Position numbers and translations under genes: made by a program
Shown here: one piece after another, positions 24,101 through 64,000 of the stretch
How positions within the stretch are numbered: position 1 is the stretch's first letter
Layout: every line of letters begins with the position of its first letter
The notes under the pieces: generated by a model
What the model saw: the letters and a program-made list of their open reading frames with translations, nothing else
Databases searched by the model: none
Told to the model about the DNA's origin: nothing
DNA from: Catajapyx aquilonaris
Lineage: Eukaryota
Reading direction: 5' to 3'
Assembly (NCBI GenBank): GCA_000934665.2
Contig: KZ538008.1
Location: 124,001-188,000 of the forward strand
DNA length: 64,000 nt

Positions 24101-27100
24101 GCTAATTAGATCATGCGACCGACACGGTTGCTACAGTCAACTTGCACGAACGCTCCCGGTACAGTACATCATATTAGCGATCACAAACACCACAAGGATC
24201 AAAGCTGGGAAAAAGTTACATGGATCCCTCGCTCGGATTCGTTCCAAAAAGGTCCCTACTTCCAACCCAAGTAGCAATAAGCGCCCTATAACCCCTTACA
24301 GAAGCTGTATAGCCCAGCTTCGCCTACTGAAAGCAGCAACAGCATCACATCAAAATTCAAAGACGGTCGCTTAATTATAAACAACCTGCATAAGCTATGT
24401 AGCTCAGTATCTTAAACGGGGTAATCCACTTGCAGTTTACACGTTGGCGCTCCATCAGCCCCGGGAACTAACGCATTCCTGAAAGTCGGTCGCCCGCAAA
24501 ATCTCATTCAGCAGTTATTCGTGCCCCCCTGCTAAATTTCTCGCTAAGCACTTTCCCCCACGCATATTCTCAGCAGTACGTGCGTCAACACACCAGACTC
24601 TGTAATCACTGCACGCCTGACACTTATTATTTTGTCAGCTCCCAGCATGTGACGTCCCCCCCACAATCACTGACCAGAAGTGTAATTCCCCCCAGCCAGC
24701 ACTGATGCTCTGCTGATGCCTGGCTGGCAGTGTTGCAAAGGACATCACACTGTGCATGCTCGTTAAAAAAAAAAAAAAAAAAATCCTCCCGAAAATTCAT
24801 TAATGGGGCCTGTGGGCGTCCATAACAGGCCAGGCCTGCCCCTGTTCTTCCTAACTGTGAGCCATAGAATGATGAAGAATGGAACAGTTTCGACCTTATT
24901 GACCATCGCCTGGAGCGGTTAGTAATGGTGTTACGATCATCAGGCCTTTGGGGGTTCGATCNATGGGGAAAGGGGGGGGGGGCCTATGCGGGTAAAAGGG
25001 GGGTACAAAATTGCCCTGCGCGTTATTTAATATGCATCCTATTGAAGTACGCGTGCCAAAAGACCATCATAGGTATACCTGTTTTACAAACCGGGCAGAT
25101 TCGTCCGCTTTGGATTTTGAGTTGGTGGACTGGACCATATTTTCGTAATCAGAACTCAACTATGGTCATTTTCAGACGGATTGCGTCCGGCTGCTCCCTT
25201 GCAGACTTCGGCCAAAGTAGAGCAGCCTACTAGACCTCTAATAATAACTTGGTATGTAATGGGCAAATAATAGCGTTTGCAGGCTTCCAAAGAGGACATT
25301 TTGCTACATACTGTACAATTCCATCCAACTACTGCAAAAGCAAACACTGCAACTTTTAAGCGCACCTCTATCATTTAATTTATAAATTGTTCTCTCTTCA
25401 CAAGAGTGAGCTGATGGTTATAAAAATTCTGCAACTGTACCTAAGCCTAATCCCCTCACAGAACGCACATTTCTAAACACCAGCTGTTCCAGTCTGAAAG
25501 CATACATAATAGGGCAAGTGCTGATTAAAATTCAAATCGTTACTTTTTGCCTAGTTTTGCTCATCCGGGAATAAGCATTACATTTCGACTCGTGCAAAAC
25601 ACGTCCCGTCACTTGAGCCATTCAGAATCATGCTCTCAGTTTTCGGTTCCACCCTCAGGAAGCAGTGCAATGTTAACTGCTTCCGGAATGTAAATTGGTA
25701 GTGCCTATGTATAGCATGCATGTCAATAAGGTAGGCGAACCCGTTTCGTATAATGCTACCCCTGGGGCTGCAAAAATGTGCCATTATTTGATGCTCTGAT
25801 TGGTTGGGGGAGGAAAGTCAAGTTGACAAAGCAAAAATTCGCTTATATTTCTGCCTCAAAACATTGTTATTAAGCGGATCGGTATAGCTCTATCAATTTT
25901 CAGCCAATATATATTATTTTTCCGATTGTCCAATCAGGAAAAAAACACATGGATTGAACTACTGCCGTGGGGAATCCACCGTAATGCATTACCAGCGCAT
26001 AGGATAGGGGTCAAAGTCCGGCTGCAGGATCGAGGCGAACCTCGCCAACCAACATTGCATACTTCACAAAAATTCAAAATTAATGCAATTAATGCAACTC
26101 GGACTACAGAGGGCCCTCAGGAGCCAATGAAAAATAAAAGCGCCGGTTGAGAGTGATTTGTGTTGAATTCAAAAATATATAGCATACCTCAAAACCGGAC
26201 ATCAATACTTTAAAAACTAGTATAATATCAGGGAAAACCTCCAGTAAATGCAGTACTTCGCTAGTGAGACTGCAGCAGTATAGTTCCCTTGCGCTCCGGA
26301 GATAAGCTATACGCCAGGGTAGCTTAGGGCTATACGGATGTAATATGTCTACGGCAGACTGCGCATTCACTTAATTATTTTAATATAAAAACGACATTAA
26401 TTATTAAAAACTATCTGATGCACTTTCCCTGCCACATCCATTAACATTTACACTCCATTACTCTCCCATGCCTATACCTAAAAAGCTCCTAATTTGCCCA
26501 ATTATCCCATCATATTGGCAAATTGAGCTGCAGGAAGCATGTAACCACCATCCCATCGCTACAAACTTCGCAAATTCATAGTATGTTACAGCTTGGCTAT
26601 ACACGTGCCGCATTTGTGCCTGACTTTACGAGCAAAGAAATTCCCTTGTCAGCATCTTACAGATCTCTCCAGACGCGTGTGAAATTCACGCTCAAGTCCC
26701 CTAAAAAGAACTTGGTGTAAATAAGGCATAAAAAGTCCGCCGAGGTGTAATGTCTCGCACAGTAGTTCCGGAGCGACATCTGCATGTCTCAGAAACTCGC
26801 TCCAGCGCTCCTTTTGCCAATAACAACAACCGGCTCGAGTTGCCTCGACATGTCTCCTGCAGGCCCACCTTTAAGCGCAGTCATGTCCGAATGAGGAAGC
26901 ATTACCGCATCCACAAAACAAAGCATTCCAGTTTCGTCTGGCACTCTGCGGAATTAAATAAGTACATTTTATTTATAACAAACATCTAATTTTCTTTCAC
27001 ATCACAAACTCCAACACTGCAAAACTTCAATTCGGCATAACAGGTCCGAGCCAAACCACTCGTGAAGTCCCCGTAATTCCACAGAAAACTACCTGGTCAT

Positions 27101-58851: not shown

Positions 58852-60793
58852 ATGGAAGGCGAACAAAAGTTTACCAGCAGGTACGTTTTATTACTGGTGA
58901 ATCCAGAACAATGTCACCAAAAACGTGCTTTTCAGATGGTTAAAACCATTTCTGGCCAATGAGAACCCACTTCCTGATGATCCAACATTTGGACAGAAAA
59001 TACGTCACGGATGTCTTTGTCCTCCTCATGGCTACCTTGCCCATATCTTCACCCTCGTTTTTATACTGTTCATGTTATGGTCCATATCCTATGGGCTATT
59101 TGGACATGAAGCACTTCCTCCTGGAGGCCAAGTCTTTGCTTTGTTGCTGCTGTCAATAGGCACATTTATGGGTGCCCAGCTGGTCAATATGGTGCATCTT
59201 CCACCTCTTCTTGGGATGCTGCTGGCTGGAGTGTTGCTCAAAAATGTACCGTATGTGAGAGAGCAGGTTGGGGACAGGTTGGATGACAGGTGGTCGGCGG
59301 TTATTAGGTAAGATACAGTAATTAGGAAAAAGTCGTATCTATACATTGCTGATATGTTTCAGACAAATTGCTCTGGTGGTCATACTCGTACGAGGAGGGG
59401 TTAACCTGGATCCGCACTTGGTTTGGAGACTGAAAGGAATTGTGCTGAAGTTGTCGATTATTCCTTGCTTAGCAGAAGCAGTGGCTGCTGGGATTGTTGC
59501 CCATTTTTTGCTAGATTTTCCATGGATCTGGGGGTTCCTGCTGGGGTGAGTTGACATGGTTGTTTACTTATTGTGGGTGTCAGATTTGTTCTGTCTGCAG
59601 TTTCGCCGGCTGTGGTGGTGCCGTCTTTGATTGCACTGCAGGAGCAACGAAGAGGTACAGCAAAAGGTATTCCAACACTAGGAATTGCCGCCTCTTCCGT
59701 TAACCAAATTGTTGCAATCGTCGTCTTTGGAGTACTGCTGGGAGCTACATTTTCTCAAGGTACAGACGTGTTGTATCGCATATACCAGGCTGCTTAAGTA
59801 CCATTTTATTGCAGGAAATGTTCTTGATACAATTTTCCAAGGGCCTATCCAGTTAGGAATTGGTATAGGTTATGGACTTATTTTTGGCATCGCAGCGTGG
59901 TTTATACCCCATGAGAAGGAAGTGAGTGTTCATTAATACTTATTTTACAAGTTTTAAAGTGCGACTGTAATATTTTCAGAACAATGCAGCTTTCTACCGT
60001 TTCTTGATAATAATGGGTGGAGGATTAACTGCAGTGTTGGTTGGTCAAAAAATTAATTACCCAGGAGCCGGAGCACTTGGTTGCCTTCTGTTTGCATTTA
60101 TGGCTGGATTTGGATTACGAAAGGCTGGAGGAGATGCACTGGTTTGTGTTTAATTAAGATGCTAATATTGTCGTATAATTAATGATCTTCATTGCAGGCA
60201 GGCGTAGTAACTGGATTTGCTGTAGCTTGGGACATATTCCAGCCCCTTCTATTTGCATTGATTGGCGCAAAAATCGACATAAATGAACTGGAACCTAGTT
60301 TAATATGGAAGGGGTTCTTATGCATTGCTGCTGGATTGCTGGTAATTCATTTCATGTTTGGAATTCATCAATGTGTCCATATTATTCCGATTTAACTTAC
60401 AGTTTTGTTGTGCCAGCTGCTTTTTTCTCTCAATGGGTGCATCTCTTAACATTAAAGAACGTATGTTTTTGGCGTTAGCTTGGATTCCGAAGGCTACAGT
60501 GCAGGTAACTTTTGAATTTTTCTATCCATAAAAAGTAAACTAACCGAACTTTGCAGGCTGCCATTGGCCCTCTTGCTTTGGACACCGCAATAGCAACCCA
60601 AGCAGGCCCTGAAGACTTGCAACGCGGCCAGGAAGTTCTAACCATCGCCGTCCTCACCATCCTGCTAACAGCACCATTAGGAGCCATCGCCATCAACGTG
60701 TCTGGACCTCACCTTCTGCAAAAAGAAGACACCAGCGAAACCAATCAGGAATTGATGCCCAACAATGAATCCAGAGCAATTGACTTGGAGTAA
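58852..60793 (+). CDS. SLC9B/NHA-family cation/H+ antiporter paralogue A, ~503 aa, 9 exons, non-canonical ion-binding site
   Basis: Exons 58852-58880, 58936-59307, 59363-59545, 59584-59759, 59815-59921, 59980-60141, 60198-60341, 60403-60504, 60557-60793 (1512 nt, frame closes). Motifs LPPLLGMLLAG, WGFLLGFVLSAVSPAVVVPS, KGIPTL, WDIFQPLLF, AWIPKATVQAAIG, ILLTAPLG are SLC9B hallmarks. The start exon is less certain. Confidence 0.93.
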
Positions 60794-61069: not shown

Positions 61070-62859
61070 ATGCTGTATGCCTGGGTAAGCATACATTGTA
61101 ATGGAATTGGCAGCATGCATGTCATATGTGTTTCTTCCAGGGAGCCAACAGCCATGGCCAGCTGGGGTTGGGACACAAGTCAGAGCAGTGTGAGACACCG
61201 GTACTGGTACAGTTTCATGCGGATGTTGTTGCGGTTTGTGGAGGTGGAGGACACACACTGGTTCTGGACAGGTCTGGCCAGATTCACTCCTGCGGACTGA
61301 ACAGTGAGGGGCAACTTGGGCGCGGAGGGGATGGGAGCTTGTTCCAGTCGGTTTGCATGGATAATGCGGCAAGGCAGATTGCATGTGGGTGGGATTTTAG
61401 TCTGGCTGTGACCCATGATGGGGACTTGTACAGTTGGGGGTCAAATAGGTATGGACAATTGGGCGTTGGCAACACTGTTCAGCGTAGTGACAGGCCAGTG
61501 AAGGTGCCGTTATGTGATGTAGTCAGGGTTGCAGCAGGATTGAGGCATGCGGCAGCAGTGACTTCAAGAGGAGACCTTTATGTTTGGGGCAGTGGACGCA
61601 AAGGGCAACTTGGTATTGCTCAAAATGAAGTGCCACTCCCTATCAAAGGTAGCTGGATCGTCTATGCCCCATGTTAAGGTGCCAGCAGACCAATCTAGGA
61701 AATATTTGTTGAATTCATCAAGTATTATCAATTGCCTAGTTTTTTGCCTGCAGTGTTCAGCCTGATTTATTGCAAATTACATAACTTGCAGTTCATAATT
61801 TAGGTTGCATCTGCATTTATGAAAATGTTGTGGACACTTTCCCTTGTGAACGTGTTGTGAAATCATCACTTCTGGACAGTCACTACCACACGTGGAGGCA
61901 ACAGGAGCAAGTGGAAATGAGCCTTGGCAATATTTTGATTTATGCAGACATGAGGAATTTAGTGTATAATCTCAATGGGAAAAAGCCGTTGCTGGTTTCA
62001 AAACTGAGTTACTCTTCAATCAAAACTCAAGAGTCAGGTTGCTACCGACAATAATTACCATGCTAATTCTCTGTGGTTAGTTTGACAGATTATGCTAATG
62101 TGGCTCAAGACAATAATTATTCCTTGGGTATAAATACTCCCTCCCATGTGGTTAGTTATTTTTAATAGCAGTGATTGGATTACCTGTCATCCTTTTCTGA
62201 AGCCTAGGGTGTCCATAATTTTTCTAAGGTGACAGTGAAGATCATTATGATCATTAATTGCATTTAGTTTCCAGTGTTGAAGGCATTTTACATGTAGCAT
62301 GTGGACAGCACCACACATTGGCAGTGACATGCGATGACGAAATTCATGCATGGGGCAGTAATAACTACAGACAATCTGGAGTACCTCCGTTAGCGCCTCA
62401 CGATGTGAAGGATCTCAAGTCTGGATGGAATCATGGAGTAATTCTCACAAGTAGGCTACATTTGCAATGTGGGAAACCATGTGAGAACTACAGTTCATTA
62501 ACTTGGCAGGGAACGGACAAGTAGTCACGTGGGGTCGCAACAATTTTGGACAACTTGGAAGGGATGGTGACCCAGCATCACCAATGCTAATTCAAGCCCA
62601 GTCAGGCATTCGTGAGATTGCAGTTGGTTCCGAGCACAATGTGGCATTAACTGGTGAGTTGCCAAGAGTCACTAAATCAATACCCTTTTGACATGATTGC
62701 ATTCTCATTGCAGAGAGTGGCACTGTGTTGACCTGGGGATGGAATGAGCATGGCAACTGTGGAACTGGTGATACCATGAATGTCCTCCGCCCAACTAGAA
62801 TATGTCGAATTGGTAAAATAGTAGGTTGTGGTGCTGGAACGTCCTTTTTGGCAACATAA
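61070..62859 (+). CDS. SERGEF: RCC1-repeat protein, SERGEF/DelGEF-like, 331 aa, 5 exons
   Basis: Exons 61070-61084, 61141-61648, 62268-62450, 62510-62653, 62714-62859 (996 nt, frame closes). Peptides AWGANSHGQLGLGH, GGGGHT, ACGWDFS, AAGLRHA, SGWNH, GSEHN, WGWNEHGNCG, VGCGAG follow the SERGEF pattern. Confidence 0.85.
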
Positions 62860-63060: not shown

Positions 63061-64000
63061 CTACATGAAAGTGGACTGAACATTCTGAATAATCTCCTCT
63101 TCTTGAGCCATGAGATTAAGTTCAGAGCAGACAGATGGTGGCTTGGGTAGACCTCTAAGTGCCTCAGGATCCTGCAAAAAAGTAGCATTATCATCCATGC
63201 AAATCGGATCAATTTAATAAAGATACATACCACCTCCTGTCCCTCCTTCCTTGCGGCTGTGATCAAACTTAAGCTCTTCCTCTGACCTGGACTGAGCCTG
63301 GTTAAAAGCCGAGGTCCAGTGACAGCAATCCAGATGGCACCAAGAGGAGCGGTGATCAGGATAGCCAATACAGCAATGGTAAGTATCTGACGTGCATCAT
63401 GCTCCGCTTTTTCGGATGGATGGCTCATTTGGTGCACCTTGTCCAATGCCAGCGGACCTATTGCAGCCTGAAATTCCACTTGCATTAGGACACAAATACG
63501 AGCATTGATTAACATGTTAACTCACCTGCACTGTGGCCTTTGGAATCCACGCAAGGGCCATAAATATTCTCTCCCTGAGGTTCATTCCTTTCACTACTGC
63601 AAAGCTCATCAAAATTCGCACCTGCAAAGTTCAAAGTACTGCCTTGTAAACTTGTTATAAGCAGATGTACATGTAAATGTAGTGTATTGAACTTACAAAC
63701 ACGCCGCAAAACAGAACTGCTATGAGAAGGCCTACAGCCCCACCTTCGAGGCTGGAGAGGTCAATCTCTGCTCCAATGAGTCCAAACAACAATGGCTGGA
63801 ACACTGCCCAAAGTACTGCAAATTGGCCAGAAACTGCATGCTGGAATAGGAAAAGCCATATCAATTCAAGGTCTGAGGCATTGTACAATTTACTGAACAA
63901 GTCCAGGTAAATGGGACACCCATCCACATACATGTGCCTTCTCCCCTTCTCTTCTCCATCCATAAGCTCCAACACATGTGAAGAGCAGGCAAGCCAAGGC
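63061..64000 (-). CDS. SLC9B/NHA-family antiporter paralogue B, 3' part only (5' end beyond the window)
   Basis: Exons >64000-63932, 63840-63697, 63621-63526, 63467-63231, 63171-63061. Peptide WAVFQPLLFGLIGAEID..VRILMSF..ERIFMALAWIPKATVQAAIGPLALD..ILITAPLGA. The last exon is less certain. Confidence 0.92.

Follow-up and report, generated by a model that had tools for sequence, protein, structure and literature searches.

An intact SLC9B (NHA) paralogue of Catajapyx aquilonaris without the paired aspartates and arginine of the ion site, possibly a non-exchanging protomer

Introduction

Two aspartates and a basic residue are regarded as universal working parts of cation/proton antiporters (CPA), and in the motif numbering of these proteins position 7 is Asp278 in bison NHA2 and Asp164 in E. 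coli NhaA. Position 7 is an Asp in 94% of CPA proteins, as stated in the part of PMC6181914 that treats the motif. Mammalian NHA2 (SLC9B2; chains 7p1i and 7b4l) is the closest described system, and mutagenesis of the bison protein is informative about all three residues: as far as that account bears on the ion site (PMC8850199), the D277C-D278C double mutant is transport-dead, R431A is severely impaired, activity depends on dimerisation, Glu406 pairs with Arg176, and Glu214 and Arg431 form a structural salt bridge that tunes cation specificity, which alters when the pair is swapped. What would the elevator fold do once all three residues had gone? A retained family member of this kind would be a natural experiment on the question, and here we describe a candidate, gene A, which lies on the forward strand of a 64,000-nucleotide (nt) stretch of the Catajapyx aquilonaris assembly (GCA_000934665.2, contig KZ538008.1, positions 124,001 to 188,000). 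We call this whole stretch the window and give all positions in its numbering.

Several relatives depart from the usual plan in part. Drosophila Nha1, an arthropod NHA paralogue like gene A, has a reported transport mode other than Na+/H+ exchange, having been proposed as a H+-Cl- cotransporter, and CPA2 proteins have been reported as channels (sections on these proteins in the reviews PMC9174904 and PMC9644288). The sections of the former on the site state that human NHA1 has no residue change creating a charge imbalance there, and hold no comparable statement for fly Nha1 (PMC9174904); both insect sequences in our homologue set, from Zophobas and Periplaneta, carry the Asp-Asp (DD) pair. Some CPA2 clades of the CHX and Kef types have Asn or Gln at position 6, as described in the part of Masrati et al. 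2018 (PMC6181914) on this position, and thus a neutral amide like Asn235 of gene A, whereas gene A has no acidic residue at position 6 and none at position 7. In the same animal NHA clade as gene A stand three automatically named 9B2-like paralogues, from the crinoid Antedon mediterranea (XP_071952954.1, with a DN pair), the chiton Liolophura sinensis (XP_064597395.1, ND) and the limpet Lottia gigantea (LOTGIDRAFT_137052, ND). In contrast to gene A, these have one aspartate changed and not two; they stand elsewhere in the tree, with about 43% identity to gene A.

Results

An intact NHA gene

Gene A (58852-60793, + strand) has nine exons with a total of 1512 nt, equivalent to 503 codons and a TAA stop, and contains no internal stop in a model assembled from three reading frames and checked by script. 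All eight introns (55, 55, 38, 55, 58, 56, 61 and 52 nt) run GT..AG, making all 16 splice sites canonical, and the intact, in-frame gene that a first-pass annotation had proposed from the letters alone is thereby borne out.

Judged by its sequence, gene A is a paralogue in the animal NHA (SLC9B, CPA2) exchanger family. Four of its exons (2, 3, 4 and 7), each compared separately with PDB chains by phmmer, gave significant matches to NHA2/SLC9B2 only, in colinear order, and Pfam PF00999 matched three of eight exon pieces at colinear profile positions, with 16.0-21.1 bits each (exon 4: 21.1), which taken piece by piece is below the 26.2-bit cut-off. The likeness to mammalian NHA2 extends to the 14-helix architecture, the extra N-terminal helix with its CPPHG motif, and the motifs AVSPAVVVPS and PKATVQAAIG, whose conservation had been pointed out at first pass.

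Gene A falls inside an animal NHA clade of 27-28 rows, with a Shimodaira-Hasegawa (SH)-like support of 98 in FastTree and an SH-like approximate likelihood-ratio test (SH-aLRT) support of 86-93 in a quick IQ-TREE analysis; within it, a weak placement (80-85) puts gene A among pancrustacean sequences (Hyalella, Penaeus, Palaemon, Cyprideis, Periplaneta and Zophobas). The closest full-length proteins are 42-45% identical, and a partial Hyalella protein reaches 50% over ~310 columns. An exhaustive representative search with exon 4 alone returned 946 proteins at E up to 0.001, and we examined the best 150 of these 946; the best match to exon 4 among the proteins gathered has 73% identity over a partial stretch. 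One metagenome scan gave a single locus, of the DD type. Gene A has an end branch of ordinary length (1.13; median, 0.77), not appreciably longer than that of its canonical neighbour, paralogue B (1.10, from a partial sequence), and three other proteins (P0238, P0205 and P0014) exceed 1.5.

Paralogue B is encoded at the edge of the window, convergent (tail to tail) with gene A. As the first-pass annotation had it, B keeps the Glu of the LIGAE motif (Glu406) and the Arg of VRIL (Arg431) in our partial model, and it also keeps Lys459 and the PKATVQ motif. The three intron positions that we could compare in B are those of introns 6-8 of gene A, yet the tree does not join A and B as sisters, which argues that the gene A copy is old and arose by a duplication at the DNA level.

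Losses at the ion site

How different is the site itself? The ungapped alignment of exon 4 places Asn235-Gln236 of gene A on Asp277-Asp278 of bison NHA2, in agreement with the DD to NQ change called at first pass, and the codons named there for Gln266, Lys368 and Cys393 likewise proved correct. Compared with mammalian NHA2, gene A thus has Asn-Gln for Asp277-Asp278, Cys for Arg431, Lys for Glu406 (the partner of Arg176) and Gln266 for a Glu. It has no Asp at motif position 7, no DD pair at positions 6 and 7 and no basic residue at position 8 (Arg431), three features of functional Na+/H+ exchangers in the CPA superfamily.

We aligned spliced gene A with 107 homologues that cover most of its length (from 146 proteins) and thinned these to 38 below 80% mutual identity. 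At 69 columns the 38 homologues are at least 90% conserved, and gene A keeps 63 and departs at six. Three of the six departures are conservative (A>G, L>V and V>I) and three are radical, namely D277N, D278Q and R431C, in columns where the family residue stands in 38/38, 35/38 and 38/38 homologues, respectively. Over the same 69 columns the other 38 sequences depart at between none and eight, so that gene A is no overall outlier. The probability that at least three of the five core-site residues (Asp277, Asp278, Glu214, Arg431 and Lys459) fall among six departures is 0.0036 by a hypergeometric test that was picked post hoc. The loss is concentrated on the ion site and not spread through the protein: gene A keeps Glu214 (its Glu172; Glu in 38/38), Arg176 (Arg134), Val243, Trp456, Lys459 (Lys421), Thr461, both crossover motifs and the extra N-terminal helix, and it has the NHA2-specific Glu214, as well as Arg176, Trp456, Lys459 and Thr461, in common with the mammalian protein.

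Conserved charges tell a broader story. Of 22 columns in which at least 60% of residues carry one sign, gene A has lost the charge at seven (positions 216, 235, 236, 266, 393, 437 and 477), compared with one to four in the named animal homologues (Nymphon, Mactra, Mya, Mytilus, Sycon, Argonauta and Zophobas), and just 6 of the 38 rows have lost seven to nine. The first-pass annotation had taken all the altered charges as a co-ordinated loss, a view that stands for Asp277, Asp278 and Arg431 and fails for the LIGAE Glu, whose column (Lys368 in gene A) is variable, with Glu in 11/38, Ala in 18/38 and Gln in 5/38; the column of Gln266 is moderately conserved, with Glu in 27/38.

Contigs and transcription

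DNA contigs of three sequencing runs from one sample (X1, X2 and X4) each span gene A and show no difference at 59702-59707, all of them reading NQ; this sample may be the source of the window, and the agreement is therefore not independent confirmation. A second sample, from another study, provided run X5, two contigs of which skip exactly 60142-60197, 60342-60402 and 60505-60556, which are the predicted introns 6-8 with their GT..AG ends, where the DNA contigs read through. The kind of run X5 is unrecorded, and we take it as RNA or complementary DNA solely because its contigs skip these introns. Exons 6-9, the 3' half of gene A, are transcribed and spliced as modelled, which answers in part the question of expression raised at first pass, and Lys368 and Cys393 are read unchanged in the X5 contigs.

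These data bear on whether the protein is still a Na+/H+ exchanger, or whether the NQ and Cys codons stem from misassembly or from a rare allele. The NQ codons come from contigs of a single sample, possibly that of the window, which leaves some room for such an error; yet the contigs of three runs agree on the codons, a change from Asp to Gln needs two base changes, Cys393 and Lys368 were also read in the second sample, five separate functional positions are changed, and the double Asp mutant of NHA2 is inactive, according to the part of PMC8850199 on these mutants. We therefore regard both an exchanger and an artefact as very improbable. A DD-bearing alternative copy of exon 4 was ruled out, tblastn of the spliced protein against the window having found no second copy and the flanking introns having just 38 and 55 nt.

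Other pairs in the family

All searches together gathered 392 proteins, and the site could be aligned in 348 of them. The pair is DD in 322, DN in 11, ND in seven, DA in three, DV in two, and EN, YN and DG in one each, giving 26/348 NHA-like proteins with a pair other than DD (among them P0215, P0206, P0030, P0220, P0209, P0218, P0265, P0267 and P0272). The NQ pair occurs in 0/348, and the NQ clade that the first-pass annotation had proposed to look for in relatives did not appear among these homologues. P0220, a 106-residue fragment of unknown origin with a Tyr-Asn pair, is the sole homologue without an acidic residue at either position, and it has the IAASSV stretch before the pair in common with gene A. 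Arg431 is kept in five full-length position-7 variants (including P0215 of Antedon, P0072, P0038 and P0054) and in the ND protein P0206 of Liolophura, and the Lottia protein P0030 ends before that column. Departures from DD thus recur in the NHA family; in the gathered set, the absence of an acidic residue at both positions combined with the loss of Arg was seen in gene A only. The literature that we searched, with subscription journals outside its cover, yielded no paper on SLC9B proteins without both aspartates or on the non-DD variants of the family.

A hamster protein in the set, P0147 (Cricetulus griseus, 494 residues), has two copies of the exon-4 region, both DD, and probably results from a gene model in which the adjacent NHA1 and NHA2 genes were joined.

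Discussion

A non-exchanging protomer

The reading that we tentatively prefer, with a probability of roughly one in three (0.35), is that gene A encodes a protomer that no longer exchanges ions and takes effect by dimerising, in a regulatory or scaffolding capacity. Published NHA2 mutagenesis suggests that canonical Na+(Li+)/H+ exchange has probably been lost in this protein, and none would be expected because exchange rests on Na+ and H+ competing for the aspartates. The carboxylate site for cations and protons has been dismantled with its charges in balance, in that a pair of negative charges (Asp277 to Asn and Asp278 to Gln) and a nearby positive one (Arg431 to Cys) have gone. With Arg431 lost along with both aspartates, the buried site stays electrically balanced, an outcome that selection for a folded protein would bring about and neutral decay would not. 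The parts that build the elevator fold are retained, namely the extra N-terminal helix, both unwound crossover motifs and residues Glu214, Lys459, Thr461 and Trp456, and the protein would still fold and use the NHA dimer domain to pair with itself or with B or another canonical paralogue. A protomer that does not exchange could then have been selectively retained in a regulatory or scaffolding role towards such a partner.

Several observations weigh against this reading. The retained Glu214, Lys459 and Thr461 fit a working transport site as well as they fit a scaffold, and we infer both the dimerisation of the gene A protein and a possible interaction with B. The transcript cover from X5 consists of exons 6-9; exons 1-5, and with them the NQ codons and the splice of the 38-nt intron 3, lie outside it. 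A second AG stands 17 nt downstream of the modelled acceptor of intron 3 (exon start 59601) and would give a 55-nt intron, a frame shift and a stop near 59701, and hence a truncated protein. Word-based searches with exon 4 and exon 2 brought up no orthologue of gene A, nothing rising above ~42-45% over the full length, and hence no ratio of non-synonymous to synonymous substitution rates (dN/dS). As a control, the last exon of paralogue B likewise had no match above 60% over its full length, and because B too is without a close match we read the missing orthologue as poor sampling of the lineage and not as uniqueness of gene A. Finally, the variants among the DNA contigs comprise four non-synonymous and one synonymous coding change, a ratio of 4:1 (n=5) that is in keeping with neutrality (P 0.63) and less so with strong constraint (P 0.03 when 30% non-synonymous changes are expected).

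Decay of an old copy

Could gene A then be a relaxed or dying copy, one that became non-functional rather recently, continues to be transcribed and has yet to suffer a disabling mutation? Residues essential for activity are gone, and conserved-charge columns have been lost in greater number than in the named animal homologues. The variants themselves point in the same direction. The four non-synonymous ones, H67Q, T86A, P100S and E119D (59107, 59162, 59204 and 59263), lie within 157 bp of exon 2, are found in the X4 contig only and have no synonymous change beside them, though all are in columns that vary in the family and T86A goes toward the family consensus; the synonymous one is an A>G at 60272, in the codon of Lys368. 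The introns contribute four single-nucleotide polymorphisms (SNPs) in intron 7 and a 2-nt indel in intron 6, so that SNP density in exons (5/1509) and introns (4/430) does not differ significantly (Fisher P 0.12; 0.049 with the intron indel counted); with so few variants these tests on polymorphism are without statistical power.

Intron 3 is a further oddity, at 38 nt against 52-61 nt for the other seven introns and with the frame-shifting alternative acceptor just described. With the modelled junction at 59583, gene A nevertheless regains the GFVLSAVSPAVV stretch of the family, which the Nymphon protein P0002 also has, and the 17 bases 59584-59600 encode F-V-L-S-A of the conserved GFVLSAVSP stretch, which is still complete; we argue on this ground that the 38-nt intron is the one in use. 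Unproductive splicing might be regulated at the segment 59546-59600, or the segment might be a weak spot in gene A.

Set against decay are the absence of any stop or frameshift in 1512 nt with every splice site canonical, the 63 of 69 highly conserved columns that are kept, and the clustering of the radical changes in the ion site (by the post hoc test) along with the charge-compensating loss of Arg431, neither of which neutral decay predicts. The branch, at a length in line with that of B, speaks against decay too, as does the age of the copy, A and B not being sisters: a long neutral history would leave more damage than gene A shows. On these grounds we think a dying copy rather unlikely. 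The claim made at first pass, that the gene is retained and not decaying, gains from the intact frame, the transcribed 3' half, the focused losses and the ordinary branch, and is held back by the few polymorphisms, which are compatible with relaxed constraint.

A carrier with another coupling

Bile-acid/Na+ symporters, which have the same fold, bind Na+ by Asn, Gln and one Glu. Gene A might similarly encode a re-tooled carrier, in which the elevator still moves and the site binds something else or couples differently. Glu172, freed of its salt-bridge partner Arg431, could be the single titratable group, and the amide oxygens of Asn235 and Gln236 could act as neutral ligands with Lys421 nearby. 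Such a site might hold a cation through one carboxylate, bind Na+ with no competition from H+, or accommodate an anion or a neutral solute. The focused pattern of change at the ion site would suit such a carrier, and all other invariant core residues are kept (Glu214, Lys459, Thr461 and the crossover motifs), seemingly beyond what a scaffold needs. Precedents within the family also point this way, in that swapping Glu214 and Arg431 shifts the cation specificity of bison NHA2 (the part of PMC8850199 on that pair), that the fly Nha1 proposal and the CPA2 channel reports (in PMC9174904 and PMC9644288, as above) involve other modes of transport, and that non-DD pairs recur. Yet Lys421 (bison Lys459) may just pair with Glu172 and leave an inert cavity, and Asp is highly prevalent at position 7 (PMC6181914); none of the characterised members that we came across functions with no acidic residue at this position. 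We hold a re-tooled carrier to be possible, if doubtful. Equally tentative is a wider proposal in which this carrier would couple transport in a new way or take a new substrate, be it Na+ free of competition from H+, an anion or a neutral solute, and would mark, together with the DN, ND, DA, DV, EN and YN variants of other animals, an unstudied class of SLC9B paralogues whose sites are non-canonical.

The interest of gene A, if it has been retained, lies in what the fold does after the loss of its universal parts. It also touches on osmoregulation: crustaceans have expanded their NHA genes, and the review literature on these expansions describes the ions that single paralogues carry as unknown (PMC9644288); in the main text of that review the words aspartate, binding site and motif are absent. 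A non-canonical SLC9B class, if real, would sit within NHA expansions that are specific to particular lineages and for which a link with salinity adaptation has been drawn. Since a few percent of NHA-like sequences are without DD (26/348), counts of paralogues may overstate the exchanger capacity of a genome. The finding would be an ordinary one if gene A proved to be a young pseudogene.

Features of the locus and its surroundings

Table 1. Exons, altered positions and neighbouring genes in the window, with the basis of each assignment
Feature	Position	Strand	Content and basis
Exon 1	58852-58880	+	ATG at 58852, 29 nt coding; in-frame splice model alone
Exon 2	58936-59307	+	N-terminus, extra transmembrane (TM) helix TM -1 (CPPHG motif), TM1-TM3; phmmer against NHA2 chain 7b4l_A, E 9.6e-19, query 12-121 to chain 62-174
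Exon 3	59363-59545	+	TM3-TM4, with Arg134 (bison R176) and Glu172 (bison E214) kept; phmmer against 7p1i_B, E 2.2e-15, query 2-60 to chain 178-236
Intron 3	59546-59583	+	38 nt; in-frame splice model and family stretch restored at the junction
Exon 4	59584-59759	+	Crossover helix TM5a-b (AVSPAVVVPS), TM6 with the altered ion-site pair; phmmer against 7p1i, E 1.9e-11, ungapped, residues 1-57 to bison NHA2 238-294
Altered pair	59702-59707	+	AAC CAA, Asn235-Gln236 where bison NHA2 has Asp277-Asp278 (CPA motif positions 6 and 7)
Exon 5	59815-59921	+	Gln266 at 59850-59852, a Glu in 27/38 homologues
Exon 6	59980-60141	+	Splice model; covered by a spliced contig of run X5 (record 7)
Exon 7	60198-60341	+	TM10, Lys368 at 60270-60272 (bison Glu406); phmmer against 7b4l_A, E 2.8e-07
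Exon 8	60403-60504	+	TM11-TM12a, Cys393 (TGT, 60406-60408) in the Arg431 column; W418, K421 and T423 kept; covered by X5 record 8 without difference
Exon 9	60557-60793	+	TM12b-TM13, C-terminus, TAA at 60791-60793; X5 contig continues to 60823
AATAAA	60815-60820	+	22 nt past the stop codon of gene A; likely polyadenylation signal, role suggested by sequence
RCC1-repeat gene	61102-62524	+	Between gene A and paralogue B; Pfam PF25390 (RCC1-like domain) E 1.5e-46, PF00415 (RCC1) E 4.7e-36
Paralogue B, C-terminal part	63297-64000	-	Exons 64000-63932, 63840-63697, 63621-63526 and 63467 to about 63297; tblastn and model; ends at the window edge

Upstream of gene A, the segment 56300-57200 is GC-rich (about 0.51 GC) and both of its strands carry long open frames with a high content of Pro, Gly, Ser and Glu; one frame was scanned and had no Pfam match. 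Single N bases stand at 24962 and 34942 of the window.

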